64,000 nt of DNA from a virus: positions 10,598 through 74,597 of IMG/VR virus record IMGVR_UViG_3300032224_000809; one strand, 5' to 3'. Positions 4,378-37,327 of the stretch are shown one piece after another. How positions within the stretch are numbered: the stretch's first letter is position 1; the number at the start of each line of letters is the position of its first letter. A program made the position numbers and the translations under genes. Under the pieces are notes generated by a model. The model was not told the origin of the DNA. It saw only the letters and a program-made list of their open reading frames with translations, and made no database searches.

Positions 4378-6345
4378 ATGGCATCTACAGTAAATAAAGA
4401 TTTTAAGATCAAGAATGGTCTTATCGTTGAAGGCGCATCCGCAACAGTCGGTGGCTCAGACGTATTAACAAAGAAGCAGGCAGACATTGATTACATTGTT
4501 TCACTTGCAGGTGGCGGAGCAGATTCTGCTAACGTTGCAAACAAGGTAGTAAAGCGTGATGCATCAGGTAACTTTGCAGCAGGAACAATCACTGCAGCAC
4601 TAACTGGTAACGCATCAACAGCATCTACACTTGCTACACCAAGAGCAATTGCACTTTCAGGTGATGTTTCTGGTACAGCAAACTTTGATGGTTCAGCAGG
4701 AATCACAATTACAACAACTCTTAACACAGCATTTGCTACAGATGCAGAAGTTGCTACAGCAAAGTCAGAGGCTATTGCTTCAGCAGCATCAGATGCAACT
4801 ACAAAGGCTAATAATGCTAAGTCTGGAGCAGAAGCAACCGCAGCATCTGCACTTTCAACACACGAAGCAGATACAACAAATATTCATGGAATTGCAGATA
4901 CTGCACTTCTTGCAACAAAGTCTTATGCTGATGGAAAGGCTTCAGATGCACAAGCAGCAGCAACAACCGCTGCAGCAACAGATGCTACAACTAAGGTTGC
5001 AGCCGAAGCAACTGCACGGGCAACAGCCGTTACAAATGCAATTTCTACTGCTGCATCAGATGCAACTTCTAAGGTTGCAGCAGAAGCAACCGCTAGAGAC
5101 ACAGCAATTGGAACAGCAATTTCAACAGAAGTTACAAACCGTAACTCTGCTATCTCTTCAGCAATTTCAACAGAAGTTACAAACCGTAACTCAGCAATTT
5201 CTACTGCAGTTGCAGCCGTTGTTGACTCAGCACCTGCAATGCTTGACACATTGAACGAACTTGCAGCAGCACTTGGAAATAACCCAAATGTTATTACAAA
5301 CTTAACCACTACTATTGGAACTAAACTTCCTCTCGCTGGTGGAACACTAACTGGAGCACTTGTTCTTTCAGGTGCACCAACAGCAGATCTTCAAGCAGCA
5401 ACTAAGGGCTATGTTGATACAGCAAATACAAATCAGTCAACAACTCTTACAACAGCAATTGCAACTGCAAAGTCAGAAGCAATTTCTACTGCTTCATCAG
5501 ATGCTACAACAAAGGCTAACGCAGCCCAGTCTGCTGCAACAACAGCAGCAGCAACAGATGCTACAACAAAGGCTGACGCAGCAAAGGCTTTTGCTACAGC
5601 AGCAGATACAACACTTCGCACAGCAGTAACATCTGATATTGCAACTGCAAAGTCAGAAGCAATCACTGCAGCAGCATCAGATGCTACAACTAAGCGTGAT
5701 GCAGCAAAGACTTATGCTGACGGACTTATTGCAACAGAAGTTACTAACCGTAACTCAGCAATCACAGCAGCAACTGGAGCGCTATCAACTTCAACAATTG
5801 CAGAAGGTACAAATAAGTACTTTACAGATGCTAGAGCAGTCGCAGCAGTATCTGGTGCAATTACAGCAGCAGTTGACGCAATCAATACAGATGCAATTGA
5901 AGAAGGTACTTCAAACCTTTACTTCACAAATGCTCGTGCACTAACAGCAGTTGGTGGATCAGTAACAACAGCAATTGCAAATGGTGATTCAACAGCATCA
6001 CCAACATATCTTGCTGTAAAGTTGGGAACACTTGCAAAAGAGTTTGCAGCAACAGTTAACGTACCAACAGCATCAACAGCAACAGCATATTCATGGCCAA
6101 TTGCAGATTTCAGATCTGCAAAGGTACTTGTAAAGACCAAGAATGGAACACACACTGAAATTTCAGAGTTACTCCTAACACTTGATACTTCAAACAACAT
6201 TGCTATTACAGAATACGCACTTGTTGGAACAAATGGCACACTTGCCACAGTTACAGCAGACGTAAACGGTACTGACGCAAGAATTCGGGTAACAACAATC
6301 AATGCATCATCAGATGTATACGTTGTTGGAACTCTTATTGCTTAA
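4378..6345 (+). CDS. Ala/Thr-rich tail fibre protein
   Basis: AAGGAG RBS. ASTLATPRAIALSGDVSG fibre motif, DATTKA and ISTEVTNRNSAI coiled-coil repeats, LDTLNELAAALG, EGTNKYFTDARA repeats. Confidence 0.8.
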   Translation: MASTVNKDFKIKNGLIVEGASATVGGSDVLTKKQADIDYIVSLAGGGADSANVANKVVKRDASGNFAAGTITAALTGNASTASTLATPRAIALSGDVSGTANFDGSAGITITTTLNTAFATDAEVATAKSEAIASAASDATTKANNAKSGAEATAASALSTHEADTTNIHGIADTALLATKSYADGKASDAQAAATTAAATDATTKVAAEATARATAVTNAISTAASDATSKVAAEATARDTAIGTAISTEVTNRNSAISSAISTEVTNRNSAISTAVAAVVDSAPAMLDTLNELAAALGNNPNVITNLTTTIGTKLPLAGGTLTGALVLSGAPTADLQAATKGYVDTANTNQSTTLTTAIATAKSEAISTASSDATTKANAAQSAATTAAATDATTKADAAKAFATAADTTLRTAVTSDIATAKSEAITAAASDATTKRDAAKTYADGLIATEVTNRNSAITAATGALSTSTIAEGTNKYFTDARAVAAVSGAITAAVDAINTDAIEEGTSNLYFTNARALTAVGGSVTTAIANGDSTASPTYLAVKLGTLAKEFAATVNVPTASTATAYSWPIADFRSAKVLVKTKNGTHTEISELLLTLDTSNNIAITEYALVGTNGTLATVTADVNGTDARIRVTTINASSDVYVVGTLIA

Positions 6346-6367
6346 AAAATTAAAATAATAAAGGGGC

Positions 6368-6832
6368 GTGATCACTTTGGCTACAGTCAATAAAGACTTC
6401 AAAGTAAAAAATGGACTACAGGTCGCAGGAACTGCAGTTTTCGGGGGAACAGTACAGGTAGCAACACCAGTATCTGCTTCTGATGCAGCAACAAAGGCAT
6501 ATGTAGATTCAAAATCAAGTCAAATGGCTTCAGGTGCAATCGCTCCTTCCAACCCAACAGCGGGTGCACTTTGGCTAGACTCTCTAACTAATAGAGTTAA
6601 TGTTTATTCTTCAGCAGGATGGGTAACACTTGCTGCAATTGATGACACATTAGATCTACCACAGCACATCCACGATACAGCAATCGATGGTACAGGATTT
6701 ATTGTTTCACAATTCCGCAGTGGCGGAAGTTTCAATAGTCCGCAAGGATCAGGTCTCGATGGAGGATCTCCAAGTTCAACTACTTGGGACGTTTCATTCG
6801 ATGGTGGTTCAGCAGTAGATAACTTCAATTAA
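6368..6832 (+). CDS. Short fibre-associated virion protein
   Basis: N-terminal TVNKDFKVKNGL is shared with 4378. DAATKAYVD and APSNPTAGALWLD fibre motifs. The start may be TTG 6377. Confidence 0.65.
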   Translation: MITLATVNKDFKVKNGLQVAGTAVFGGTVQVATPVSASDAATKAYVDSKSSQMASGAIAPSNPTAGALWLDSLTNRVNVYSSAGWVTLAAIDDTLDLPQHIHDTAIDGTGFIVSQFRSGGSFNSPQGSGLDGGSPSSTTWDVSFDGGSAVDNFN

Positions 6833-6839
6833 AAATTGA

Positions 6840-6848
6840 TGTTATAAT
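6840..6848 (+). promoter_or_regulatory. Extended -10 promoter TGTTATAAT
   Basis: Intergenic, upstream of the 6892-10413 gene run. Confidence 0.6.
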
Positions 6849-6891
6849 AGTACAGAAAGACATCCGCAGAACGGATAAAAGGAGAATATAA

Positions 6892-8304
6892 ATGGCAACT
6901 AGAATGCAACAGCGCAGAGGAACTGCAGCCCAATGGACGGCAGCAGATCCAATTTTAGCAGCAGGAGAAATTGGGTTTGAAACAGACACCAGCCAGTTCA
7001 AAATGGGCGATGGCGTTAATGCATGGTCAACTCTCTCCTACTTTAAGAACTTAGAAGACTTGGGTGGTACTCTTGATGATTACATCCCACTAACCCAAAA
7101 GGGTGCAACCAATGGTGTAGTCCCTCTTGATGGCTCAGGTAAGATTCCAATTGGATACCTTACAAACCTTATTGCAAACGCACCAGAAGCACTTGATACA
7201 CTTAAAGAACTTGCAGATGCAGTTACTTATGTTACAAATCAAGTTTCTGGACATAATGGAACAACAACAAATGTTCACGGTATCGCAAATACAGGAGCAC
7301 TTGCTACAACTACAGCAGTTACTACAGCAATTGCGACACACGAAGCAGATACAACAAATGTTCACGGAATTGCAGATACATCAGTACTTGAAACAACATC
7401 TGGAGCACAAACTAAGGCCAATGCAGCAGCACTTGCTGAAGTAAATGCTCACAAGGTAATCACAACTTCAGTACACGGAATTGCTGATACAGCACTTCTT
7501 GCTACAAAGGTATATGCCGATGCAGTAGGAACAACAGAGGCTTCAAGCCGTGCAACAGCAATCTCAACACATAATTCAGCAACAGCAAACGTACACGGAA
7601 TTTCTGATACATCTGCTCTTGCTACAAAGACATATGCTGATGGTAATGTTACAACACACAACTCAGCAACAACAAGCGTACACGGAATTGCAGATACTTC
7701 ACTTCTTGCAACTAAGTCATACGTAGATACAGCAGATGCTCTTAAGGCAGCGCTTGCATCACCAGCATTCACTGGCACACCAACTGCTCCAACAGCAACA
7801 GCAGGAACAAATACTACACAGGTAGCAACAACAGCGTTCGTAGGAACAGCAGTTTCAGCACTCGTAGCATCTGCTCCAGCAGCACTTGACACACTTAATG
7901 AGTTGGCAGCAGCGCTTGGTAGCGATGCAAACTTCTCAACAACAATGACAAATGCTCTTGCTCTAAAGGCAAGCAAGGCTGAACTTTCAGCAGCAACTGT
8001 CGCATCATTTAATAACAAGACAACTTCTTACACACCAGTACTTTCAGATGAAGGAAATGTAATTGAAATGGATTCTGCTTCAGCAAATTCTGTTACAATT
8101 CCACCAAACTCATCAGTAGCATTTACAATTGGTTCATCAATCGATGTATTCCAAAAGGGTACAGGCCAGACAACAATCGTTGCAGGTGCAGGAGTTACAG
8201 TTCTTAATACACCAGGACTCAAGTTCCGTGATCGTTACTCAATGGCAACATTGATCAAGCGTGATACAAATACTTGGATCGTTTCTGGCGACTTGACAGC
8301 GTAA
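6892..8304 (+). CDS. Tail fibre with Mtd-N-like N-terminal domain
   Basis: QRRGTAAQWTAADPILAAGEIGFETDT..FKMGDG, five H-x7-HGI repeats, LASPAFTGTPTAPT motif, C-terminal WIVSGDL domain. Confidence 0.8.
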   Translation: MATRMQQRRGTAAQWTAADPILAAGEIGFETDTSQFKMGDGVNAWSTLSYFKNLEDLGGTLDDYIPLTQKGATNGVVPLDGSGKIPIGYLTNLIANAPEALDTLKELADAVTYVTNQVSGHNGTTTNVHGIANTGALATTTAVTTAIATHEADTTNVHGIADTSVLETTSGAQTKANAAALAEVNAHKVITTSVHGIADTALLATKVYADAVGTTEASSRATAISTHNSATANVHGISDTSALATKTYADGNVTTHNSATTSVHGIADTSLLATKSYVDTADALKAALASPAFTGTPTAPTATAGTNTTQVATTAFVGTAVSALVASAPAALDTLNELAAALGSDANFSTTMTNALALKASKAELSAATVASFNNKTTSYTPVLSDEGNVIEMDSASANSVTIPPNSSVAFTIGSSIDVFQKGTGQTTIVAGAGVTVLNTPGLKFRDRYSMATLIKRDTNTWIVSGDLTA

Positions 8305-8335
8305 TACAAATTTAATAAGAAAAAAGGAGATATAA

Positions 8336-9691
8336 ATGGCAACTATTCGTAGAGGTGGTAAAGCAGGTAAATCTGCTAAGGCTGCAGTAAGTTTTTGGGG
8401 AGTAGCCCCAGGGCAACCTTACATCGTAAGCGTAGTCCCAGGTTTTGGTGGAGCATATTTCTCATCAACAGCCGTGATTACATTCAATAAGAATGCTATG
8501 GGTGCCACTCCTTCTTCTTATACAATTTTCGCTAACTCAGTATATGGAACTACTACATTCACAGCAACGTCTTCACCATTTACAGTTACAGGTTTAAGAG
8601 CAGGTACAGCATACGCATTCACAATTCTTGCAAATGCTCCAGTTGGTCAGGCAGCAACAGCAACAACATCTGTAGCGTCTTCACAGAGTAACGCAGATAT
8701 AAAGTCTGTTCCTGATGCTCCAACAGGAGTTACAGCATCATCACCATCAGGTGCAACATATGACACAGTGTCATGGTCAGCACCAGCAGATAACGGTGGA
8801 GAAGCAATTACTAACTATCAGATTGAATCTTCTGACGGAAAGTCTGCTACAGTAAATGCTCTTACAACAAATATTGCACAAGAAGCAGGAACAGCACAGA
8901 CATACCGTGTTAGAGCCTACAATGCTCAGGGTTGGTCAGAATGGTCTGCATGGTCAGCATCTGTTACAACATTCTCATTTGTGCCGTTCTCAGTATTCGG
9001 ATTCTCCCCATTCGGAGTATTTGGATTCTCACCATTCGGCGTGTTCGGATTCTCTCCATTCGGATTCTCTCCGTTCGGTGTATTCGGATTCTCTCCGTTC
9101 GGTGTATTTGGGTTCTCACCATTTGGTTTCTCACCATTCGGAGTATTTGGATTCTCACCATTCGGTGTATTCGGATTCTCTCCAGGAGGAGGATGTATTG
9201 CTCCTGATACACTAGTATCAGTTGTTGGTCCAGAAGACACATACATTCAGATTCCTGCAAAGGATGTTGTTACTGGACAAGAAGTATGGGCACACTCATT
9301 TGATGAAATGATAGATGAAACTGTTGCTGATCCAATGACACTTGCTTTTGATAAATTGACAAACCAAGCAATTGTTAAGACAAACGTTGCATCTGTTGTT
9401 GAAAAAGAAATGCCAGCAACATTGACAATTAACGGGGACTCAACAAAGAAGTATTCAACTGTACAGGGAATTCTATATAAGCGTAATGGAATCTATGGAT
9501 ACATTAGTACAGGACTTCTAGAAGTTGGAGACTATGTAATGGAATATGATTACAATTTTCATGCTTTCAATGAGATTCTAGTAACATCAATTGAAATTGA
9601 TGAAACTCCATCAACAGTTTATAAGTTTGACATGGAACCAGCAGATACATTTATTGCTGGAAACATGGTAGTACACAATCGTAAGTCATGA
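8336..9691 (+). CDS. FN3-FN3, Phe/Gly-rich repeat, C-terminal Hint domain protein (probably virion-associated)
   Basis: Two FN3 domains (VTGLRAGTAYAFTI; PDAPTGV..VSWSAPADNGG..YRVRAYN..GWSEWS). GGG|CIAPDTLV (Cys at 9194), ending FIAGNMVVHN-RKS-stop. AAGGAG RBS. Confidence 0.85.
   Translation: MATIRRGGKAGKSAKAAVSFWGVAPGQPYIVSVVPGFGGAYFSSTAVITFNKNAMGATPSSYTIFANSVYGTTTFTATSSPFTVTGLRAGTAYAFTILANAPVGQAATATTSVASSQSNADIKSVPDAPTGVTASSPSGATYDTVSWSAPADNGGEAITNYQIESSDGKSATVNALTTNIAQEAGTAQTYRVRAYNAQGWSEWSAWSASVTTFSFVPFSVFGFSPFGVFGFSPFGVFGFSPFGFSPFGVFGFSPFGVFGFSPFGFSPFGVFGFSPFGVFGFSPGGGCIAPDTLVSVVGPEDTYIQIPAKDVVTGQEVWAHSFDEMIDETVADPMTLAFDKLTNQAIVKTNVASVVEKEMPATLTINGDSTKKYSTVQGILYKRNGIYGYISTGLLEVGDYVMEYDYNFHAFNEILVTSIEIDETPSTVYKFDMEPADTFIAGNMVVHNRKS
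8972..9184 (+). repeat. Coding repeat FSFVPFSV-(FGFSP-FGVFGFSP-FGVFGFSP)x3
   Basis: Read directly: nine FSP units, with synonymous codon variation between copies. Confidence 0.95.
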
Positions 9692-9696
9692 TGTAA

Positions 9697-10413
9697 TTGC
9701 TTTACCATCATCATGCGCCAAGGACTTCAGGCCTATTCATTAGATCTGCGGTCCATTTGGCTTTTCAGACCAATAAACTAAAATCAGCAATTGTTTATCA
9801 TGATAGGGCCATTAGTCCAGACATGTTTAAAGATGTTGAGTTTATTTCTGGACACTTAGGGAACTATCCTAATCTATTTATTAAAGATTTAAAATCTTTT
9901 ACAATATTAAGAGATCCAGTTGAGAGGTTTATTAGTTGGTTCTTTTTCATGTATGAAAACTCCAGAAGTTTTGAGGAACTTGAAAAAATATTTGACCAGT
10001 GGCTATATAACCCAGAGATATATCCATACCTTTCAGACATGCAAACAAAATTTTTGACGGGAACTGTAGATGAAGCAGGATTTAACAGCACTAAAAGCAT
10101 AATGGATAAAACCATGAATGAGTGGTTTCTTAAAGATTATTCGTTTGATGAGTCAGTAATGCAGGACAAAGTTGACTCTATTGGTTGTTATACAGTGGAG
10201 ACCAGAGATATACTATTAGATGACATAATTAGGTATATGGGTAAAACATATGGCTTTGTCCCAAACTTTCAGCACAGACATATGATGTTTAACTCAAGCA
10301 CATCTAAAAGGTTTGACATAACTGATAAAATGATTAACAGGATTAAAGAACTAAACCAGCATGATATAATTTTATATGAGATGGCAAAAAAGTCTAATCC
10401 AAAGCCACTTTAA
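9697..10413 (+). CDS. Sulfotransferase (Sulfotransfer_2-like)
   Basis: HAPRTSG 5'-PSB-like motif, FISGH, ILRDPVERFIS 3'-PB-like motif, LNQHDIILYE. Confidence 0.8.
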   Translation: MLYHHHAPRTSGLFIRSAVHLAFQTNKLKSAIVYHDRAISPDMFKDVEFISGHLGNYPNLFIKDLKSFTILRDPVERFISWFFFMYENSRSFEELEKIFDQWLYNPEIYPYLSDMQTKFLTGTVDEAGFNSTKSIMDKTMNEWFLKDYSFDESVMQDKVDSIGCYTVETRDILLDDIIRYMGKTYGFVPNFQHRHMMFNSSTSKRFDITDKMINRIKELNQHDIILYEMAKKSNPKPL

Positions 10414-10419
10414 GCAATA

Positions 10420-10428
10420 TGGTATACT
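10420..10428 (+). promoter_or_regulatory. Extended -10 promoter TGGTATACT
   Basis: Intergenic, upstream of 10454. Confidence 0.55.
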
Positions 10429-10453
10429 AGTATAAATAGCAAAGGGAGCAGTA

Positions 10454-11119
10454 ATGAACATGAATCAATATCCAACCGATATTCAGAGTGTGAGCAAGTC
10501 CACTCAGCCACATAAGTTTTTTGAAAGATATCTTAACAATAACCTATCGGTCCTAGCATCAGAACTACAGGATAGATATGAAAAGATTGAAAAAGCAAAA
10601 GTTGTAGGCGTAACTCCAGTAGGTGCTAACGAAGCCTGGAAGCAGTCAAATAGTGTATCAACAATGAAGTGGAGACAGTATAATGTTTTCCAATTCCACT
10701 CAACTGGTATTTATAATTTGTACAAATCGGTAAAAGATATGACAATTGAAGCATGCGACTACTACGGTATTGATTTTGAAAAAGAAAAGTTTATGCTTCA
10801 GGGATGGTTTAATATTACTCATGCTGGTAAGGGTAAACTTGATTGGCATGATCATGGTCCAACTGGTGCTCCAAACTTTCATGGGTACTACTCTGTAAGT
10901 GCAGAGCCTTCAATTACCTACTACAAGGTTTTTGATAAGGAGATTGAGAATCATAACAAGAATGATCGTGCAATCCTTTCTGAAATGGGGCATCCACACT
11001 CTATGGCCGATTGGGACTGGGAAGGTCCAAGAATTACAGTTGCCTATGACGTTATTCCATTAAGAGATATTCAAAAGTTTGGAATGGATCAAGAGCAACA
11101 TTGGATTCCACTAGCATGA
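10454..11119 (+). CDS. Putative 2OG-Fe(II) oxygenase (TIGR02466-like DSBH)
   Basis: GWFNI...WHDH...HGYY...HS...RITVAYD pattern. Confidence 0.7.
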   Translation: MNMNQYPTDIQSVSKSTQPHKFFERYLNNNLSVLASELQDRYEKIEKAKVVGVTPVGANEAWKQSNSVSTMKWRQYNVFQFHSTGIYNLYKSVKDMTIEACDYYGIDFEKEKFMLQGWFNITHAGKGKLDWHDHGPTGAPNFHGYYSVSAEPSITYYKVFDKEIENHNKNDRAILSEMGHPHSMADWDWEGPRITVAYDVIPLRDIQKFGMDQEQHWIPLA

Positions 11120-11751
11120 TAGCAATGGCAAAACCAAGTCACAAGTTTTTTGAAAGACATTTAAGTCTAGATCTTCCAAAACTCGAAACATCTCTTTTGA
11201 GTCTTAAAGAAAGACTTTCTTCTGAAAATGTTCCAGGGGTAAAAAATAAAGACTATGAGTCAGTAGATAAAGCATCATTTACTACTCAACTAGGAGAGAA
11301 GTATAATATCTTTCAGTTTCATGATGAGAATATTAGAGCACTTTATTCTTCAATTAGAGACATGGTTTTAGAAGCCTGTGACTACTATGGTATTAATGCT
11401 AAAGATCAAAACTATATGATTCAGGGATGGTTTAATGCTGATAAAAATAGCAAGCCAGAGCCACTACCAAATACATATCTTCATGACCATTTAAACGGTC
11501 AAGGAGCACCAGATTTTCATGGATACTACTGCGTTAATGCAGAGCCTTCATATACAAAGTATATGATTTCAGGAGAGACAGAGTTTTTGAATGTTAATGT
11601 TAATAACCGTGCAATCCTTTCTGAAACTGGACATGCTCATGGTATTAGCAACTGGCCTTTTGAAAAAGACAGAATCACAATTGCTTATGATGTGTCTCCA
11701 TTGCAAAATATGAAAGGCTCACCAGAACAGCATTGGGTTCCAATCCTATGA
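11116..11751 (+). CDS. Putative 2OG-Fe(II) oxygenase, tandem paralog of 10454
   Basis: Shares HKFFER, YNxFQFH, EACDYYGI, QGWFN, HDH, FHGYY, RITxAYD and EQHW with 10454. ATGA overlap at 11116. Confidence 0.7.
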   Translation: MIAMAKPSHKFFERHLSLDLPKLETSLLSLKERLSSENVPGVKNKDYESVDKASFTTQLGEKYNIFQFHDENIRALYSSIRDMVLEACDYYGINAKDQNYMIQGWFNADKNSKPEPLPNTYLHDHLNGQGAPDFHGYYCVNAEPSYTKYMISGETEFLNVNVNNRAILSETGHAHGISNWPFEKDRITIAYDVSPLQNMKGSPEQHWVPIL

Positions 11752-11891
11752 TTAAAAACTTTATTCGTCATCTATTAGGATACAGATCAATAGTACAAAA
11801 ATGTCCTGTAACTGGAATAGAACAAACTATAACATTTAATAAACTTACTAAAAAAACAAAAGATGCACACAGAGGTATGAGTTTTAACTAA
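11748..11891 (+). CDS. Small protein (47 aa) with KCPVTG motif
   Basis: Below the ORF-track cutoff. ATGA overlap; MIKNFIRHLLGYRSIVQKCPVTGIEQ...MSFN. Confidence 0.55.
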   Translation: MIKNFIRHLLGYRSIVQKCPVTGIEQTITFNKLTKKTKDAHRGMSFN

Positions 11892-11936
11892 CTCTCAATA
11901 ACACCTTTAGGTAGAGTTTTGTTTTTTTGAAAACTC

Positions 11937-11945
11937 TGCTATACT
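11937..11945 (+). promoter_or_regulatory. Extended -10 promoter TGCTATACT of nrdJ, with an adjacent inverted repeat
   Basis: Motif match; AGAGTTTT/AAAACTCT inverted repeat at 11913-11937. Confidence 0.55.
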
Positions 11946-11980
11946 TAACACTTAATCCGTTTTTGAAAGGACGATAATAC

Positions 11981-14011
11981 ATGTCAGATTTCTTTAGTTT
12001 TAGGCTTCCAGAAGACTTTGTTGAAAAATATAAAAGCGTTGAAAGCCCTTTTGGCTTTAAAGATGCAGCAGAGAATTCACTTGGAGAGATCACCTTTATC
12101 AGGACATACTCCAGAATGAAAGAAGATGGAACTAAAGAGCGATGGCACGAAGTTTGTCGTCGAGTAATCGAGGGTATGTATTCAGTTCAAAAGAATCATG
12201 CTAAAGAGAACCGTTTACCCTGGAATGATTATAAGGCTCAGAAATCTGCACAAGAGGCTTTTGATAGAATGTTTAATTTAAAGTGGACTCCACCAGGACG
12301 TGGTATGTGGGCTTTTGGTACTCCCATGGTTATGGAAAAGAAAAATTCAGCAGCACTTCAAAATTGTGCAATGGTTTCAACAAAGGACCTTGACAAAAAT
12401 GATCCAGGGGCTTTGTTTGCTTGGGTTATGGATGCCCTTATGCTTGGTATTGGTGTAGGATTTGATACAGTTGGACAGGATAAGAATTTCTCAATCTATG
12501 CCCCGACAGAACCTGAACAGGTGTTTGAAATTCCAGACACTCGTGAAGGCTGGGTCGAGTCAGTTAGAATTCTTATCAACTCCTATTTAAGAGCAAATCA
12601 AAGTATTCAAAAGTTTAACTACGACCTCATCAGACCCCTTGGTTCGGCCATTAAGGGCTTTGGAGGCGTTGCATCAGGGCCTGCACCTCTTATCAAGTTG
12701 CATGACCATATAGACCGTGTAATCGGCTCCAGAGCAGGTGAAACACTAGACTCTCGTGCCATTGTAGATTTAGTAAATCTTATTGGTACTTGCGTAGTAT
12801 CAGGCAACGTTCGCAGATCCGCAACCCTTGCCTTGGGGAGTGAGGGGGATGAAACATTCATGAACTTAAAGAATTCAGAAATGTTCCCAGAGCGTAATTC
12901 ATTTGATTCAGATAATCCAGGATGGGCATGGATGTCTAATAATTCTATTTCAGCAGAAGTAGGAACAAAGTATGAAGACTATGTAGATTTAATTACAGAA
13001 AACGGAGAACCAGGTTTTATCTGGCTTGACGTTGCTCGTAATTATGGCAGACTAAAGGATGCGCCAGATGGAAAAGACTATCGTGTGATGGGCTTTAATC
13101 CATGTGCGGAGCAGCCATTAGAGTCTTACGAATTATGTACACTTGTAGAAGTGCATTTAAATCGTCATGACTCTAAGGAGGATTTCCTGCGTACCCTGAA
13201 GTTTGCATACCTATATGGAAAAACTGTAACTCTTGTTCCAACACATTGGCAACAGACAAACGGAATTATGCAACGTAATCGTCGCATTGGTACATCGCTC
13301 ACAGGCATTGCATCTTTTGCAGATCTAAAGGGCTTGCCAACAGTTCGTGAATGGATGGATGAGGGATATAACAAAATTCGTCATTACGACAATCAGTATT
13401 CTGAATGGCTATGTGTTCGTGAATCAATTCGTGTAACAACAGTCAAGCCATCAGGATCAGTTTCAATTCTTTCTGGTGCAACTCCTGGAGTTCACTGGGG
13501 TCCTGGAGGAGAGTTCTTCCTTCGTGCTATTCGTTTTGGAAATACAGATCCAATGGTTCATTTGTTTAAAGCAGCGGGATACAAGATTGAAAATGATGTA
13601 GTGTCAGCAAATACATCCGTAGTATATTTCCCAATTAAGTCAGGTCATCCAAGATCTGAAAAAGATGTTACTTTATTTGAGAAGATTGCTCTTGCAGCAA
13701 CTGCTCAGAAGTACTGGTCTGATAATGGGGTTTCTGTAACACTTTCATTTGACAAGGAAACAGAGTCAAAGCATGTTGTTCCAGCACTACATATGTACGA
13801 GGGACAATTAAAGGCAGTATCATTCCTTCCAATGGGAAATCACACATACCCACAACAACCATATACTCAGATCTCTGAACAGGAGTATAATAGTCACGTA
13901 GGTAAGTTAAAGCATATTGACTTTGGGGCAATTTACGATGGTGTAGACAACCTAGAAGCAATGGGCGAGGCATACTGTACAACAGACTACTGCGAGATAA
14001 AGGTGAAATAA
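11981..14011 (+). CDS. nrdJ: Class II (adenosylcobalamin-dependent) ribonucleotide reductase, RTPR-like
   Basis: TPPGRGMW, LQNC, GNVRRSA, NPCAEQ, TTVKPSG, C-terminal YCTTDYC. No beta-subunit gene nearby. Confidence 0.93.
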   Translation: MSDFFSFRLPEDFVEKYKSVESPFGFKDAAENSLGEITFIRTYSRMKEDGTKERWHEVCRRVIEGMYSVQKNHAKENRLPWNDYKAQKSAQEAFDRMFNLKWTPPGRGMWAFGTPMVMEKKNSAALQNCAMVSTKDLDKNDPGALFAWVMDALMLGIGVGFDTVGQDKNFSIYAPTEPEQVFEIPDTREGWVESVRILINSYLRANQSIQKFNYDLIRPLGSAIKGFGGVASGPAPLIKLHDHIDRVIGSRAGETLDSRAIVDLVNLIGTCVVSGNVRRSATLALGSEGDETFMNLKNSEMFPERNSFDSDNPGWAWMSNNSISAEVGTKYEDYVDLITENGEPGFIWLDVARNYGRLKDAPDGKDYRVMGFNPCAEQPLESYELCTLVEVHLNRHDSKEDFLRTLKFAYLYGKTVTLVPTHWQQTNGIMQRNRRIGTSLTGIASFADLKGLPTVREWMDEGYNKIRHYDNQYSEWLCVRESIRVTTVKPSGSVSILSGATPGVHWGPGGEFFLRAIRFGNTDPMVHLFKAAGYKIENDVVSANTSVVYFPIKSGHPRSEKDVTLFEKIALAATAQKYWSDNGVSVTLSFDKETESKHVVPALHMYEGQLKAVSFLPMGNHTYPQQPYTQISEQEYNSHVGKLKHIDFGAIYDGVDNLEAMGEAYCTTDYCEIKVK

Positions 14012-14541
14012 TGGAGGACTACGTGTCACAGATACATCACATTAAAGGTTTTATGAATGCAGATGATGCTGCAAAGATTTATGATCATGCAAAAAAATTT
14101 CCTGATGGGTTTACAATGCATGGAAATAATGAAAAAGAATTTAAGGTCTATACGTATCATGGAATTGAAGCAAATGATCCAGCAATCTTAGAGTTAATGC
14201 AAGAGTATGCCTTAAAAGTTTATGATCATGTTTTGACAACCTATGGAGAATCTTTTGAACCATTTAATCCTCACAAGACGCATATTGCAAAGTTTGAAGA
14301 AGGTCATGGAATGCATGAGCATTTTGACTCTTCAAGACCAAACGACATAGCCACTCTTGTGTATTTAAATGATGACTATGAAGGTGGAGAAATTTATTTC
14401 CCAGATTATCAAATTTCCATTAAACCAGAGCCAGGAGATTTACTTTGTTTTCCAGATCAGCCTAGATATGTTCATGGGGTAAAAGAAATAATTTCTGGAA
14501 CAAGGTTCACAACACCACGTTGGTTTACCCGCATTGTGTGA
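14011..14541 (+). CDS. 2OG-Fe(II) oxygenase, prolyl-4-hydroxylase-like
   Basis: HEHFD, YLNDDYEGGEIYF, HGVKEIISGTRFT. Confidence 0.88.
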   Translation: MEDYVSQIHHIKGFMNADDAAKIYDHAKKFPDGFTMHGNNEKEFKVYTYHGIEANDPAILELMQEYALKVYDHVLTTYGESFEPFNPHKTHIAKFEEGHGMHEHFDSSRPNDIATLVYLNDDYEGGEIYFPDYQISIKPEPGDLLCFPDQPRYVHGVKEIISGTRFTTPRWFTRIV

Positions 14542-14562
14542 TAAAATAGACTAGGAGAACCT

Positions 14563-17500
14563 ATGTCTAACCCATCAAATATCTATGCAGAAAAGATTTA
14601 TTCTGAGCAGCCAACAGCAATGTGGTCGCTTGATGATACAGCAGACTACATTTCTTTTGTTAGTTCAGAGTTAAAAAGATCAGTACATCTTTGGGATATA
14701 GAAAACGGATCTGGAGTAGTTGGAACATCTGAAAATGAGCCATTCCCAGATAGTGTGGTTTCAAGTTTAAATGGTCAAATAAATAAGACATACGTTAAAG
14801 CAACTAGCCCAGACTTTGCTAAATTTACAGATTTTGATCAAGATCTAAAAGTATTCTCTATTGGCGCATACGTCTATTCTCCAAGCACGTATTTAAGTAG
14901 CATTGAAATTGGGTATGAGTATTCCGATTCTACATCTGGAACAACAGAATCTGTGTCTAAAGTATTTAACATTAACATAGGAGAGAAGTGGCTCAATGTT
15001 TCTGATACGTTTATAATTCCAAGACAGGATGTATATTTTAATCCGTTCATAAAAATATCCTATATTCCTGGCGGAGTAGTAAATGACTATAAGTTTTTGG
15101 TTAATGGTTTAACTGTTGGTCAATGGAATGAGGAGTTTAGTGCAAAATCTTTAGGTGTTACTAAGATTCAAGTTCCATCAACTGTTAGATTGTTAGCAGG
15201 TCATGATGCAATCGAAGCCCCTTCGTATGGATTGCAAAATGATCCAGGATATTATCTTGTAAATAATAATAGACTGCTTGCACAAAATTCTGGAATTCCA
15301 TTAGTTTTTGGATCATCAAATGTAACTCATATTGTTCAAAATAGTGATGGCTTGCCATCTTTTATATTTCCAGGATGTGGATTTTTAAATGAGTCTGGAA
15401 AATATGAAGAAAAAACTTTAGAGTTTTGGCTAAGAATTTTTGCAGATTGTTCGACTCCAAAAAGACTTGTTGGTCCAGTAGCATCAGAAGATGGTCTGTA
15501 TGCATATAAGAATAATTTAATTTTAAAGGTTGGTGAATATACTAAGTCATATGGAATAGATGAGTGGTATAGGCCAATGCTTGTTGACTTAAGAATGGGA
15601 ATAAATAATACAAGTCTATTGATTAATGGCGATGAGGTTATTTCAATTTCTATCGATATTGATACTATTTCTTTACCAGACAAAATTACAAAAATAGGAA
15701 ATACTTACTTTAATAATGACTGGATCGGGTTCTATTCATACGAAGAAGTTACTCAGTTTGATATTGATACAATTGCTATATATCCATACAAAGTCCCATC
15801 TTTGGTTGCAAAAAGAAGATTTGTGTACGGTCAGGGAGTTGAATATCCAGAAATTCTTAACTCCGCATATGGTGGCACATCTACTGTAATTGATTATCCA
15901 TTTTCTAAATACACCAATAACTATTCCTACCCAGACCAAGGATCTTGGGCAAGTGGATATTTCACAAACCTATCAGTAACAAATAATACTCTGTCAACTC
16001 CAAACTACAAGTTACCTGATTTTGTTTTTTCTAACAAAAGTTACGATAATTTTTATCTTGATAATTCTACAATTCAGAACGATAGCGATGGCAATTTTTT
16101 AACGTTGAGGCCTTCAGCAGGTTGGTCATCAACAGATGGATATATTCATTTTGATAAGTTAAATATTCTAACAGATAGAACAGAAGCAGTCTATGGAGTA
16201 TTTAAGATTGCAGAGCATAAAAGTTACGCTCAGGTTTTAATTCGAATTGAAGACTCCTCTAATGGAAATTATTTTTCTTTAGAGTTAGTTGGAGAAACTT
16301 TAAGGTATAAATTTAAAAATGGAGACAGTATTTCAACAGTGTACTCTGCAGAAGGAATTCTTACAGGATCTCTTTTTATTGCTGGAATTAGTATTGATAA
16401 ATTTATAGATGCTTTTGGAAGTAGTGCTGCTTCACTTTTTGGCAATAGGGCTGCTCTTTCAGTTTATATTGCTGGAACAAAAGAGTTTGCAAGCACTTTT
16501 AGTGGAAAAATATTTGGAATTCATTTTGCAAATAAAGACACCCTTGACTTAATATCATATGGCTTTTCAGATAGGGGCGTTCCATTAGATTATGAAAACG
16601 TATTTAATGACTATTCCACTGGCTCAGAAGTTGGAGAATCTGATTATGATGCACGGTTTTATAATACAAATTTTTGGTCAAGTTTGGCAGACGGGGGAAG
16701 TGTATCCTCTTACATATCTTCAAGAATTGGTTCAGTAGTAAGTTCATACTCTTTACTTCCTCAATATTTTATGGGGTCATTTAAAATTGATATTGGATGC
16801 CACGGATACTGGAAGACAACCCTGCCGTTAACCTATTTTGGTAAATATGTAAATGACTCATACGGGGATTCATATTATGATCTTGACTTTTTACAATTTA
16901 ATATTTCTGTTCCATCTCCAAGCAAGTTTGTTACAATTGAAAGCACTGGCTCTTGGAAATATGAAGACTTAAAACAAGCATACAGTAATGAAGAGTTTAA
17001 TAGTTATGCCTATTTAAATAATCAACTTTATACTAACTATAATGACTATTTAGACTTAAAAAACAGATCTGAAAAAACATATTCGTATGATACATCAGAA
17101 AATCCAATAAGAACTAGAGTAACCTTTGAATACACTGAGGCATCTGGTCAAACTCCAGACTCAGCATATGTTAACCAAATTGCACCAGATAAAAATGGAA
17201 CAGTAAGAGTAGGCTCAGAGTGGATAAATACAGCCTATGAGGTTGTTGATGGAATGATTATTTATCCACCATCTGACGTAAATTTTGAAGATGTGTCAAT
17301 CTCTGTTTCAGTAGATATGGTCACAAGATCAATGCTATCTTTGCCAATGTCAATAAAACAGTTACAGTTATCATCTCAGTCATTTAGCGAAGATGGCTTC
17401 AATCCTATTGGAACAAAGTTTGGAACAGATATTTATCCATATACAAAGTCTGGACTTTATTATGATTACAAAACTGCAAACCCATATAGCATTTATAAGA

Positions 17501-18270: not shown

Positions 18271-18288
18271 TATGGTATACTAATGGTT

Positions 18289-26979: not shown

Positions 26980-27012
26980 GGCCTCATCCTAACGGATGGG
27001 GCTTTTTCTTTT
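26980..27012 (+). terminator. Rho-independent terminator
   Basis: GCCTCATCC-TAAC-GGATGGGGC followed by a T-run. Confidence 0.8.
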
Positions 27013-27023
27013 GGTATACTTAT

Positions 27024-28118: not shown

Positions 28119-31100
28119 GTGTCTGATGTAAATGCTAATATAGGCATACATTTTGATACGGCCACGGCTCTTTCAGAATTAAGAAGGCTTCAGGCTGGTC
28201 TAAGCAAGTTTAACCAATCCTTAACACAAGGAAACATTGCTGCTGAAAATGCACAAAAGGGTTTAAACAGTCAACTCATTCAGTCGATTAATCAAACTGG
28301 AAAGTTTATTGCTAGCCAAAAGGATGTCCATACATCTACTGCAGCCTTCACCTCTGCGCTGGAAAAGAACCAGTTAAGCCTTAAACAATACTTTAGATAT
28401 ACCGCTGCAGCCACCTCATTAAACAGTAATGTCTTAAAAAACTTTTTTGCTCAAGAAAAAGAAATTCTTCAACGTGCAAGTAAAGATAGAGTAAAGACTC
28501 TTCAAAGCCAGTATATCCAGTTAACAAATGCTAATGGTCAATTAGTAAAAACTCTTCAGGTAATGCCAAAGCATCTACAGATGACTGGTGGAGCATACAC
28601 AGATTATGCAACACGAATACAAATGGCTGCACAAAGACAACAGTTCTTGAATCAACTATTAAAGCAGGGTTCAACACAACTACTAAACTTTGGTAAAAAT
28701 ACTCAATGGGCAGGCCGTCAGTTGATGGTTGGTTTAACAATTCCTTTGACAATGCTTGGATCATTTGCTGCTAAAACATTTAAAGAGATGGAAGAGGCAA
28801 CTGTAAAGTTCCAGCGTGTATATGGAGATATGGCAACAAGCGTTGCAGAAACAGACAAGGCTGTTGCTGGAATTAAAAGACTTGCTAGCGAGTTCACAAA
28901 GTATGGTGTTGCAGTAAAAGATACAATGAACATGGCTGCAGATGCAGCAGCAGCAGGTTATTCTGGCGCAGCCCTTACCGCTCAAGTAACGCAGGCAACT
29001 AGACTTGCAGTTCTTGGTCAAGTGGATCAACAGCAAGCATTAGAAACAACTATTTCTTTACAGAATGCCTTTGGAATATCTTCTGAACAATTAGCAACCA
29101 AGATTAACTTCCTCAACGCTGTAGAAAACCAAACAGTTTTGTCTATTGAAGATTTAACTATTGCAATTCCAAAAGCAGCCCCTGTTGTAAAACAACTTGG
29201 AGGATCTGTTGAAGACCTAGCCTTCTTCCTTACAGCAATGAAGGAAGGTGGAATCAACGCATCAGAAGGTGCCAACGCACTTAAGTCTGGCCTTGCAGCA
29301 ATGATCAATCCTTCTAAGAAAGCATCAGATATGCTTGCTGGTCTTGGAATTAATATTAAGGGAATTGTTAATAATAATGCGGGGGATTTAAAAGGCACCG
29401 TAGTAGGATTTGCAAGAGCACTAGATACACTAGATCCTCTTAACCGTGCTAAAGCAATTGAGCAGATGTTTGGCAAGTTCCAGTTTGCCCGTCTATCAAC
29501 ATTATTCCAGAACATAACAAAAGATGGCAGTCAGGCTTCTAGAGCACTAGGTTTGGCAGGTGCTTCTATGGAAGAGTTAGCAATCTTGGCAGAGCGAGAA
29601 ACAGCAAAGATTGAAAATGCAACTGGTAAGAAATTCCAAAAAGCAATTGAAGATATGAAGGTTCAGTTGATGCCTTTGGGTAAGGCATTCCTTGAGGCTG
29701 CAACTCCTATTGTAAAATTTGTTGGAAATATATTAGAAAAATTTAATAACCTAAGCGATGGAACAAAAAAGATCATAACAACTATCGTTGGAGTGGTTGG
29801 AGGTTTGGCCCCAGTAGCACTTATGGCATTTGGTTTACTTGCTAACGGAACTGCAAACGTAATCAAGTTCTTTGCAATGCTTCGTGGAGGAATGGCAAAA
29901 CTTAATGGACAAAGCAACGTCCTTGGTGCAGGCTTTGACTATATGACTCAGCAACAGATCGAAAGTCTTGCTCAGTCTAATGCCCTTCATACATCACATC
30001 AAAAATTAATTGAAACATTTAATGTTGAAGCAGGAGCAGCAAATGCACTAGCAGCAGCATATGGAAATGCAGCATCACAAGCAAGAGCACTCTCAATGTC
30101 CTCTCCAGGATTGTTTAATGCAGCACCAGGAGCAGCAGGGGCAACATCAGGTCTTTCTCCAAGAAAGAAATATGCAGAAGGTGTATTTAGTGTTCCAGGA
30201 TCAGGAACTGGAGATACTGTTCCAGCAATGCTGACTCCAGGAGAAACAGTTGTATCAAAAAAGAATACAGATAAATATGGACCACTTCTTAAAGCAATTG
30301 GAAATGATTCTGTTCCAGGATATGCAAATGCAGGAATGGTTGGTGCAGATGGACAAAGAATTTCATTTAATGGTCAGAGTTATGAAATACCAAATAGATC
30401 AACACCACAAAGCGCTAACCTTGCATTAATTTCAGAACTATCTAAGTTTAGCAAGGATGTAGAGGGTGTCTCTCGTGTATTAAAAATGCTTGAAGCCCAA
30501 GCCAAAATAGCAGGGGATGGATTTAAAAAATTATCTGGGGAAACAATAAAGACTATTCTCGAACAAGAAGGTGTATTAAGAAATAGACCAAAGGGAACTT
30601 CTGCAACAACGTACAATGGAGAAAATTATGTGTTTGCACATGGACAGTCTCCTGGCGCCCCAATAAGAGATCCACAAGAATTGCAAAGACTTGCAGATAT
30701 GGCAACATCAAAAACATCTGGAGTTGGAAAACACCTACAGTCTTCGGCAGATGCTGCTAAGGCAGGAGATCCAAACGGATATGCTAGACAGTTTAGCAAC
30801 TTTGGATTTATGCTACCAGAAAAAGCAAACAAGGGACAAATGTCCCCTACAGATCTTGCATCTAAATTTGGTGGAAAAGATATGGCAGTCACCATGGCCC
30901 CAATGTATGATCAGTATGCAAGGTCAATGGGTATGTCACTTGAAGAAGCACTTAATAATCCTGCTGTCGCTGCACAAATGCATACAGACATGCAAACATT
31001 TGCAAGTAGAATTTCAAGCGAAGTTTCAAAAATTCCAACAGAGTTTGTTAATGATCCAGAATTTTACGCAGCAGTAAAGCAAGCACAATCCCAACTTGGA

Positions 31101-36707: not shown

Positions 36708-37327
36708 TGGCAACCGCATCATATATGTCAGGACGCAAGAAGTGGGGAAGACCCCAAGCGTTGCTTTGGTCTGAAAATTCAGGTAAGTTAGATAATGGAC
36801 TATACGTACCAAATGGATTAGAGAAAGGTGCAACAGCAACAACAGATACCCTGGTTGATCAGTTTATTGTTTTATCGGATCATGGTAGAGCCCCTATTGA
36901 TATATCAACAGAAAGAATTGAGAAACGTGAAAGAACTGTAAATGGTAAATCAAGATCTTATCATATTGCAGACAAGAATAAGTTTACTGTTTCGTGGACA
37001 GGTCTTCCATCAAGAGCATTTTCAGATGCCCCAGAGTTTTCTGTAAATGGGAAAAAGACTAGCGCTGGTATTGGGTTTACTGTAGATGGTGGAGCAGGCG
37101 GAGTAGAACTATTAGATTGGTATGAAAACCATAAAGGATCTTTCTGGATGTTTTTATCATACGATAAATATAATACCTTTGGTTCTAACTCAGAAGCCAA
37201 GATGCATTTACAACAGTATAACGATGTTGTTGAAGTATACATATCAAACTTTAACTATAAGGTTGGCAAGCGTGGACAGACACTACATGATTTTTGGGAT
37301 ATTACGGTAACCCTGGAAGAGGCGTAA
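36707..37327 (+). CDS. Distal tail (Dit-like) protein
   Basis: Directly after the tape measure; ERTVNG..RSYHIADK..FWDITVTLEEA. Confidence 0.6.
   Translation: MATASYMSGRKKWGRPQALLWSENSGKLDNGLYVPNGLEKGATATTDTLVDQFIVLSDHGRAPIDISTERIEKRERTVNGKSRSYHIADKNKFTVSWTGLPSRAFSDAPEFSVNGKKTSAGIGFTVDGGAGGVELLDWYENHKGSFWMFLSYDKYNTFGSNSEAKMHLQQYNDVVEVYISNFNYKVGKRGQTLHDFWDITVTLEEA

Follow-up and report, generated by a model that had tools for sequence, protein, structure and literature searches.

Autoprocessing domains of the Hint fold have been described in several settings. Bacterial intein-like (BIL) domains without a nucleophile at the +1 position mainly give cleaved products, both N- and C-terminal (PMC7664689), and in the ciliate BIL2 domain the C-terminus of the N-extein is joined to the ε-amine of a lysine as an isopeptide, without ATP (PMC8616854, section 2.4). 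The hedgehog Hog domain removes itself by self-cleavage, so that the N-terminal product ends in an activated Gly. Here, we analysed a gene of an uncultured lake phage in which a Hint domain follows an uncharged, Phe-rich repeat array. The DNA analysed (the window) comprises 64,000 nt of the 74.6-kb IMG/VR record IMGVR_UViG_3300032224_000809, which is estimated to be 69% complete. The array lies at positions 8972–9184, within the gene for a 451-residue precursor, P0001. We propose, with about an even chance of being right, that the array is an unfolded, very hydrophobic C-terminal adhesion or anchoring tail of a fibre-module accessory protein, which is unmasked by self-removal of the Hint domain and possibly hydroxylated. 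A literature search found no paper describing this array–Hint family; the Phe-rich array has no described counterpart and is unlike any described receptor-binding or decoration element.

The Phe-rich array and its carrier protein

Searching a large protein collection with P0001 gave 590 relatives, and the homologue figures below rest on the 120 listed (36–93% identity). Alignment A1 (40 sequences) is the basis of the AlphaFold2 (AF2) model, with its predicted local distance difference test scores (pLDDT), and of residue conservation. The precursor is composed as follows:

8336–9691, + strand: gene for the 451-residue precursor P0001 (N-terminal peptide, two FN3 domains, array, GGG, Hint, RKS tail); an open reading frame (ORF) with 590 homologues and matches in 253 IMG/VR stretches
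8336–8407, + strand: conserved basic N-terminal peptide, aa 1–24; G11 and P25 at least 90% conserved in A1, predicted disordered (pLDDT <50)
8408–8689, + strand: first FN3/Ig-like β-sandwich, aa 25–118; AF2 strands over 29–118 at pLDDT 72–90, FN3 tandem matches spanning 22–216
8714–8971, + strand: second FN3 domain, aa 127–212; Pfam fn3 at 1.5e-12 (aa 127–207), titin Fn3 at Z 14–15 and a root mean square deviation (rmsd) of 1.4–2.2
8972–9184, + strand: Phe-rich, charge-free array of 71 aa; a lead-in of FSFVP-FSVFGFSP, then (FGFSP-FGVFGFSP-FGVFGFSP)x3
9185–9193, + strand: GGG linker, with Gly286 as the predicted scissile (–1) residue; Gly stands at –1 in 55 of 138 family members
9194–9679, + strand: Hint/BIL-type autoprocessing domain, aa 287–448; invariant Cys1, terminal His-Asn, block-B TxxH replaced by TVQG, pLDDT ~95
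9680–9691, + strand: three-residue RKS tail and stop; +1 is not a nucleophile, Lys at +2

Translated in frame with the ORF, positions 8972–9193 encode 74 residues made up solely of 27 Phe, 18 Gly, 11 Ser, 10 Pro and 8 Val. The first 71 of these are 38% Phe and contain 15 FG dipeptides but no Asp, Glu, Lys, Arg or His. After the lead-in, nine units (aa 221–283) repeat the order FGFSP, FGVFGFSP, FGVFGFSP three times, and Tandem Repeats Finder assigns the DNA a period of 63, 3.0 copies and a score of 282. A sequence-only reading, made from the letters of the DNA, had described just such an uncharged 71-residue segment with a threefold hierarchy; its account of the array, its divergent synonymous codons and its setting between FN3 domains and Hint is upheld by the translation and repeat analysis, by the codon comparison below, and by Pfam, AF2 and structural matches, respectively, to a degree well outside what chance would give. 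The three 63-nt super-repeats encode identical protein (100%) with DNA identities of 82–92%. Compared by the Nei–Gojobori method, they show 5–11 synonymous and no non-synonymous differences over 15.7 synonymous and 47.3 non-synonymous sites.

The same pattern extends across genomes. In the orthologues L001–L005 and L009 the array protein is identical, with changes at 15–19 of 53 synonymous sites and at none of 160 non-synonymous sites, whereas the 150 FN3 codons before the array carry 5.5–64 non-synonymous changes in the same comparisons. Judged by these codons, the pattern is that of selection on the peptide and not of recent slippage. Because the array shows no replacement while the adjacent FN3 codons do, it is the most constrained part of the protein within this orthologous group, with its length left free. 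Synonymous divergence in the array is also several-fold above that of the adjacent FN3 codons of the closest relative (L001: 7.5/119). Synonymous variants may thus be shuffled among array units while the protein stays identical.

All 120 listed homologues carry an array between FN3 and Hint. Parsed into Pro-terminated units, they hold 5–22 each (37–157 aa), with octamers (676) and pentamers (343) dominating. In the octamer, Phe occupies position 1 in 99%, position 4 in 99% and position 6 in 99% of cases; position 2 varies (G/S/N/R/A), position 3 is V or A, G5 reaches 90% and S7 89%, and P8 closes the unit. Among close relatives (at least 77% identity) the difference is one of whole units, with proteins of 408–467 aa. 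The comparison of repeats across homologues that the sequence-only reading had called for thus finds the array always kept and its copy number free. In a wider set of 171 Hint proteins with an upstream part, the 40 residues before Cys1 are at least 25% aromatic in 124 and carry at most one charge in 136.

Replacement of the array by arbitrary polar linkers had been named in that reading as the outcome that would count against it. None of the 120 homologues shows it, and the FN3-array protein studied here never departs from a Phe/Tyr-type array; in the paralogous sister cassette, described below, such replacement does occur. This bears on the idea that the array is a passive spacer or stalk, whose only relevant properties are its length and being uncharged and unfolded, and which separates FN3 from Hint or from a C-terminal partner. 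Unit number does vary: relatives sharing 77% identity or more have about 3 to 12 (408–467 aa). Moreover, chemically different arrays interchange in the sister cassette, and Pro/Ala/Thr or Gly runs stand at this place in more distant Hint proteins. However, a spacer leaves unexplained both the ≥99% conservation of three Phe per octamer and the absence of non-synonymous change against 15–19 synonymous changes. A Phe content of 38% is rare in natural linkers, and orthologues that lack Hint have nothing downstream to space. We therefore consider this explanation unlikely.

On the structural level, AF2 predicts two β-sandwiches (aa 29–118 and 130–212, pLDDT 72–95) and a confident C-terminal domain (aa 288–447, pLDDT ~95), which flank a stretch of pLDDT <50 over aa 220–284, the array. 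FN3 tandem structures match the sandwiches at Z 13–15, so that both the Pfam model and the fold place them in the FN3 family. Searches of P0001 against Pfam and NCBIfam returned nothing beyond fn3, and its PHROG match, 'minor tail protein' at 7.8e-10, lies over the FN3 part. The Wimley–White sums of the array are –23.9 kcal/mol on the interfacial and –26.1 on the octanol scale. Pro recurs every 5–8 residues, and FG dipeptides are spaced by 3–5 residues without spacers.

An analogy to nucleoporins, drawn in the sequence-only reading, holds for composition: the array shares FG dipeptides, charge depletion and predicted disorder with FG-nucleoporin repeats. It does not hold for homology or for the hydrophilic, uncharged spacers of about 10–20 residues in those repeats, which are absent here; Pro ends every unit of the phage array, and its setting is a phage fibre module and not a nuclear pore protein. 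Nucleoporin FG domains contain roughly 10–15% Phe, compared with 38% in the array, which we therefore do not count among them.

A membrane-inserting or self-assembling anchor, as that reading also suggested, is a plausible role. In the specific form of self-assembly after cap removal, the array would build a cross-β or ordered homo-oligomeric stalk that bundles copies, with Hint blocking premature assembly. The Phe-, T/I/N- and Q/N-rich uncharged repeats seen before these Hint domains are all aggregation-prone, as is established for amyloid-forming sequences. Furthermore, most phage fibres are trimeric, and when such stalks are modelled by AF2 as monomers, confidence tends to be low. Yet unit order and length vary: this array follows an 8-8-5 pattern, others consist of octamers throughout or have runs of pentamers, and relatives also contain units of 3, 4 and 7 residues. 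This variation disfavours any one fixed geometry. For the same reason, the unit order not being conserved among homologues, we rejected a fixed 21-residue solenoid (5+8+8) of the HET-s kind. Pro at every 5–8 residues and relatives of the PPFF type disfavour long β-strands, and forms without Hint would assemble uncontrolled. Ordered assembly thus seems to us quite improbable, slightly more so than a spacer.

The Hint domain and the mature C-terminus

The C-terminal domain is a true Hint domain. Its structure (aa 284–449) matches the NpuDnaB intein (4O1R, Z 18.0), hedgehog (1AT0, 17.5), BIL2 (6TMM, 17.2) and BIL (2LWY, 16.6), with rmsd values of 1.8–2.5 over 132–142 aa. Family profile A2 finds 2LWY at 8.6e-11 and the Pho RadA intein at 8.1e-10 in the PDB. 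Pfam Intein_splicing is matched by 14 of 26 members, while P0001 alone stays below threshold at 0.12. C287 (Cys1) is invariant in 40 of 40 aligned sequences, and T292 (block A), D437 (block F), H447 and N448 are conserved in at least 90%. The domain has the terminal His-Asn and non-nucleophilic +1 residue of a type-A BIL, with Cys, Ser or Thr at +1 in only 4 of 138 family members. Given these conserved residues, and since BIL domains without a +1 nucleophile mainly cleave (PMC7664689), the Hint domain is likely to be active in autocleavage.

Comparing the phage domain with its relatives shows that it is a new variant of the BIL-type domains. With the type-A BIL of Clostridium thermocellum (2LWY; rmsd 1.8 over 132 aa) it shares the Hint fold, Cys1, the terminal His-Asn, and the lack of a +1 nucleophile and of an endonuclease. 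It differs in standing at the extreme C-terminus, with 1–6 residues after it, in a phage structural module, in lacking the block-B TxxH, and in always being preceded by an uncharged repeat array. The BIL2 domain of Tetrahymena BUBL (6TMM, profile E ~1e-5) likewise follows an N-extein that ends in Gly-Gly before Cys1. However, the phage protein has no ubiquitin-like domain, its downstream 'extein' is 1–6 residues instead of a domain, and isopeptide transfer is known for BIL2. Hedgehog Hog is also a C-terminal Hint fold (rmsd 2.2 over 137 aa), whereas the phage domain has neither a sterol-recognition region after it nor the block-B His, and its Hint-less orthologues indicate that no adduct is strictly required. 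A functional parallel exists in the Peptidase_S74 chaperones, or 'transient chaperone caps' (PMC10579305), which are C-terminal modules of the fibre region, removed after their job and optional in some lineages. The two share neither fold nor chemistry, the one relying on a Hint thioester and the other on a Ser-Lys protease, and the phage Hint caps an unfolded Phe-rich tail, not a trimeric β-helix.

Comparative support for the array as the mature C-terminus comes from orthologues without Hint. In the same gene context, at least seven distinct orthologues (L062, L063, L067, L071/72, L075/76, L077 and L079) have a real stop 0–5 residues past the array, followed by an AT-rich spacer and the next gene. 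Their ends (..TPR, ..PPFR, ..VPR, ..YSRG) correspond to the stretch just ahead of Cys1 in relatives that have Hint (..PR|C, ..SR|C). A six-frame search of these loci for Hint at E≤10 found no remnant; its sole match, in L076, was to the Hint gene that belongs to the sister cassette. When mapped onto a tree built from the N-terminal part, absence of Hint takes five changes, of which supported branches force at least three. Since these orthologues end right at the array, the predicted cleavage product is also encoded directly, in support of the sequence-only reading, which had placed the array at the C-terminus after cleavage. From the distribution of these forms, Hint is an optional cap, subject to repeated loss or gain.

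Further variants were seen at this end of the protein. In L069 (7980–9203) Hint is replaced by a 20-residue Cys-rich tail with seven Cys (..TGCTPCCCGYYGCVQDGCHI). TGnTAnAAT-type motifs follow the array-gene stop in Hint-less loci. Ser instead of Cys apparently opens the Hint domain in L021–L025, L051 and L059 (YSLGP..), in L064 and L068 (HH|SLAEST) and in L056, L057 and L065 (VK|SIGADT), and some relatives have longer C-terminal ends. L056 and L057 carry the same FGFTP array and Ser-type Hint on two different N-terminal parts (914 aa and ~460 aa).

We propose the following course of maturation. The precursor would run from the N-terminal peptide through FN3, FN3, array, GGG and Hint to RKS, with the FN3 domains and Hint folded and the array extended. 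Cys287 would attack the carbonyl of Gly286 to form a thioester, resolved most simply by water or, alternatively, as in ciliate BIL2, by the tail Lys after Asn448 has cyclised. The 162-residue Hint domain would then leave, and the protein would end in the array. This exposed tail would act by bulk chemistry and not by a fixed fold, as an interface-seeking hydrophobic filament that sticks the fibre apparatus to a non-polar surface of the host envelope or holds the protein on the virion. Its length can change by whole units, and the adjacent oxygenases, which resemble prolyl hydroxylase domain (PHD) enzymes, may hydroxylate it. We infer Hint cleavage, thioester resolution, presence in the virion, binding by the tail and its modification. 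The N-terminal peptide (aa 1–24) is a candidate docking peptide, and its conservation, together with the variable C-terminal modules, would favour a free distal tail; the opposite orientation is favoured by FN3 and PASTA being typical binding modules. Tail-fibre modules decide phage host range, and the phages in question belong to abundant lake communities that have not been cultured. The array points to adhesion by bulk hydrophobic chemistry instead of a folded binding site, its optional cap is a natural, testable case of intein-like chemistry in virion maturation, and for protein engineers array and cap may offer a self-unmasking hydrophobic tag.

Several points weigh against this proposal. 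The block-B TxxH that is normally needed for the N–S acyl shift is not conserved in this subfamily, which has TVQG here and L-E-E-x in relatives. The extein sequence can reportedly compensate for the block-B His, to go by the title of Friedel et al. from 2019. Why a cap should be kept is not evident if the protein functions without Hint. AF2 modelled the array as a monomer, and an ordered oligomer is compatible with the low pLDDT. Finally, the equivalent site of the sister cassette carries (TIN)n, fully polar (TQN)n, (TP)n or F-type arrays, so that hydrophobicity is not generally required before Hint.

The short tail behind Hint raises a further possibility. All 138 family members carry 1–6 residues after the His-Asn, so that Hint is never terminal; Lys stands at +1 or +2 in 120, and Arg or Lys in 133. 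As BIL2 is a close structural match and Lys occurs in most tails, a BIL2-like transfer of the array's Gly end to the tail Lys or to a Lys of another protein is, by analogy, a concrete possibility. This ever-present basic tail, with Lys in most, makes the BIL2-type isopeptide reaction directly testable. Taken further, repeat and Hint could form a self-ligating maturation module, which would join the array Gly either to the Lys of its own tail, so that the uncharged array gains a small basic end, or to a Lys of another virion or host protein, so that it is attached covalently, and whose array type (Phe-type, Tyr-type, TIN/TQN or Pro-rich) would be matched to dedicated oxygenases. If true, this would be an enzyme-tailored virion appendage without a described counterpart. 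We hold this extended version to be improbable, and the Hint-less orthologues argue against any essential Hint-driven ligation.

Neighbouring enzymes and the sister cassette

Behind the array gene lie a sulfotransferase-like gene, two paralogous genes of the 2-oxoglutarate (2OG) oxygenase fold and a class II ribonucleotide reductase. Gene order was compared over 80 related IMG/VR loci, to which all counts out of 80 refer, and proved stable. A second repeat–Hint gene with its own oxygenases opens the window. The genes concerned are:

9697–10413, + strand: sulfotransferase-like gene (Sulfotransfer_2; Pfam 1.8e-5, 25.4 bits against a cut-off of 22), starting 6 nt past the array-gene stop
10454–11119, + strand: first 2OG-oxygenase-fold gene, o10454, a candidate hydroxylase; AF2 pLDDT 80, predicted template modelling score 0.82
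11101–11751, + strand: second paralogue, o11101, 42% identical to o10454; in 71 of 80 loci both lie behind the array gene
3–815, + strand: 3' part of the sister protein with (TIN)n arrays, Cys modules, Hint and MYAK tail; its PASTA-like N-terminus lies outside the window (L082:595–1971)
805–2007, + strand: two prolyl 4-hydroxylase (P4H)-type 2OG-Fe(II) oxygenase genes behind the (TIN)n–Hint gene; Pfam 2OG-FeII_Oxy_3 at 4e-13 and 2e-14

Both ORFs at 10454–11751 have the double-stranded β-helix and metal-binding His of an Fe(II)/2OG oxygenase. Foldseek aligned o10454 with 3BVC/2RG4 at a template modelling (TM) score of 0.62–0.68 and with PHD2 at ~0.55–0.59 (E 1e-6 to 1e-4), which means that two uncharacterised marine proteins are followed by the hypoxia-inducible factor prolyl hydroxylases. 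H132, H134, H180 and H182 are invariant. Neither o10454 nor o11101 had a match in Pfam or NCBIfam; the ESM Atlas gives 2OG-FeII_Oxy_5 as a lead for the pair. The sulfotransferase-like protein, present in 21 of 80 loci and clade-restricted, has a PRTSG loop near its N-terminus that resembles the loop binding 3'-phosphoadenosine 5'-phosphosulfate (PAPS).

These neighbours suggest that the array could be mainly a substrate, which the 2OG oxygenases (10454–11751) hydroxylate and, in this clade, the sulfotransferase (9697–10413) sulfates, so that the modified polymer is the functional surface. Such a role is compatible with the adhesive tail and adds chemistry to it. In its favour, protein prolyl hydroxylases are the nearest characterised fold neighbours of o10454, with its four invariant His, and the pair stands directly behind the array gene in 71 of 80 loci. 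Seven loci with sufficient downstream sequence (five distinct) lack the pair, and these include four of four Tyr-type loci (YSFTP; two origins). Moreover, the sister P4H-type oxygenases directly follow only TIN and TQN versions, and not F- or Y-type versions in close relatives, and the sulfotransferase gene with its PAPS-loop-like PRTSG starts 6 nt past the array gene.

However, the phages are syntenic throughout, so adjacency carries little weight. The remaining three loci without oxygenases (L062, L064 and L068) are F-type, and with only one or two independent contrasts a sign test cannot reach significance. We therefore treat the link between array type and oxygenase as a lead resting on these one or two contrasts; it offers candidate substrates for orphan 2OG oxygenases of aquatic phages. 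The presence of the sulfotransferase in 21 of 80 loci amounts to four changes on the tree, and its Pfam family consists mostly of carbohydrate sulfotransferases. No GT2 or GT1_4 glycosyltransferase was found in the record. For want of either glycosyltransferase, we also dropped phage-encoded glycosylation of the unit Ser/Thr. In addition, o10454 is preceded by its own promoter-like TATGGTATACT. On balance, the array as mainly a substrate is possible but doubtful.

A comparable pairing is found in chlorovirus PBCV-1, whose prolyl 4-hydroxylase, according to Eriksson et al. in 1999, reportedly acts on that virus's Pro-rich repeats. In both cases a virus-encoded 2OG oxygenase of the prolyl-hydroxylase fold lies beside virus-encoded, Pro-containing repeat proteins. 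The phage array has only one Pro per 5–8 residues, the o10454 pair has no Pfam family, and enzyme activity and substrate are predictions here.

The same enzymes bear on the suggestion, made in the sequence-only reading, that the array is a multi-core precursor of the ribosomally synthesised and post-translationally modified peptide type, cut into linear or cyclic FGVFGFSP and FGFSP peptides. Pro-terminated, Phe/Gly-rich 5–8-mers do resemble some cyclic-peptide cores, and enzymes of a tailoring type are nearby. Yet the units abut without recognition or cleavage sequences, there is no leader, and no Peptidase_S8 or S9 was found in the 74.6-kb record (69% complete). Two folded FN3 domains carry the array as part of a tail-fibre module kept in 79 of 80 loci, the equivalent sister arrays are (TIN)n or (TP)n, and array length varies freely. 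This suggestion has accordingly fared worst, and we think it highly improbable.

In the sister protein, Hint keeps block B as TYEH. Its orthologues are 55–68% identical in the flanks, with different arrays at the same positions: (TIN)n in the own genome (L082) and L005, F-type FSVFSFxP plus (TP)n in L001, L003 and L009, (TQN)n in L010, L014 and L015, and Tyr-type in L066 and L074. P4H-type oxygenases directly follow the TIN (two genes) and TQN (one gene) versions only; F- or Y-type versions in close relatives have none directly behind. The pre-Hint position thus accepts very different uncharged repeats, and, as the sister arrays interchange, hydrophobicity is not a general requirement there. 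The sister arrays occupy the same three positions between conserved six-Cys modules (L082:595–1971, L001:2209–3516, L009:1211–2566, L010:1250–2710).

The fibre module and the phage

Two tail-fibre genes, identified by Mtd_N and fibre PHROGs, precede the array gene. The nearer of them has the following features:

6892–8304, + strand: tail-fibre gene with an Mtd_N N-terminus, directly upstream of the array gene in 79 of 80 loci
8026–8304, + strand: C-terminal 'knob' of this gene, ~95 aa, with a counterpart at the end of the gene that precedes the second Hint gene

The two knobs, one ahead of each Hint gene, are 43% identical (E 3e-22), and the knob type tracks the cassette, not the array type. 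Both copies (8026–8304; L082:304–585) end in ..GDLxA with an invariant Lys and Arg (PGLKLRT..FKR), and two types occur. A complex prediction of three knobs (A3) with residues 1–286 of P0001 scored 0.02 against a mark of 0.32, which is uninformative on binding either way.

The extended –10-like sequence TATGGTATACT occurs exactly or with one mismatch at 10418–10428, 18271–18281 and 27010–27020 of the window, where it shortly precedes the oxygenase pair, the portal operon and a tail gene. It is not enriched overall (31 matches against 22.6 expected), and therefore we draw no inference on timing.

In the phage GenBank collection, tblastn with P0001 gave only an FN3 match, in Streptomyces phage Scap1, with no cultured array-bearing relative, and megablast with window 6000–16000 gave no match. 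Genome contigs scanned with P0001 yielded eight loci, none a true cellular homologue and none a clue to the host. One of them, L083, is a contig of 889 nt. Two were rejected as relatives: L084, a 3.1-Mb gammaproteobacterial contig (5763–6394), where a wrong-frame reading of an opposite-strand (TETER/TETDR)n Thr/Glu/Arg repeat had been matched, and L086, a Bacteroidota lipoprotein alike in composition only. The L084 artefact of tblastn is a caution for low-complexity queries. A search of the record for WhiB gave one match below threshold (17.2 bits), which was not used, and a tRNA search found none.

The source phage is siphovirus-like, with a genome of roughly 108 kb, and genes for portal, protease and capsid are present in its record. 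Its major capsid protein shares ~41% identity with its counterparts in large, 120–134-kb Streptomyces siphoviruses, a similarity that points to Actinobacteria as likely hosts. Downstream of the head genes lie ORFs of 2862 and 1417 aa (28119–36707 and 37294–41547), which presumably encode tape-measure or tail-tip proteins.

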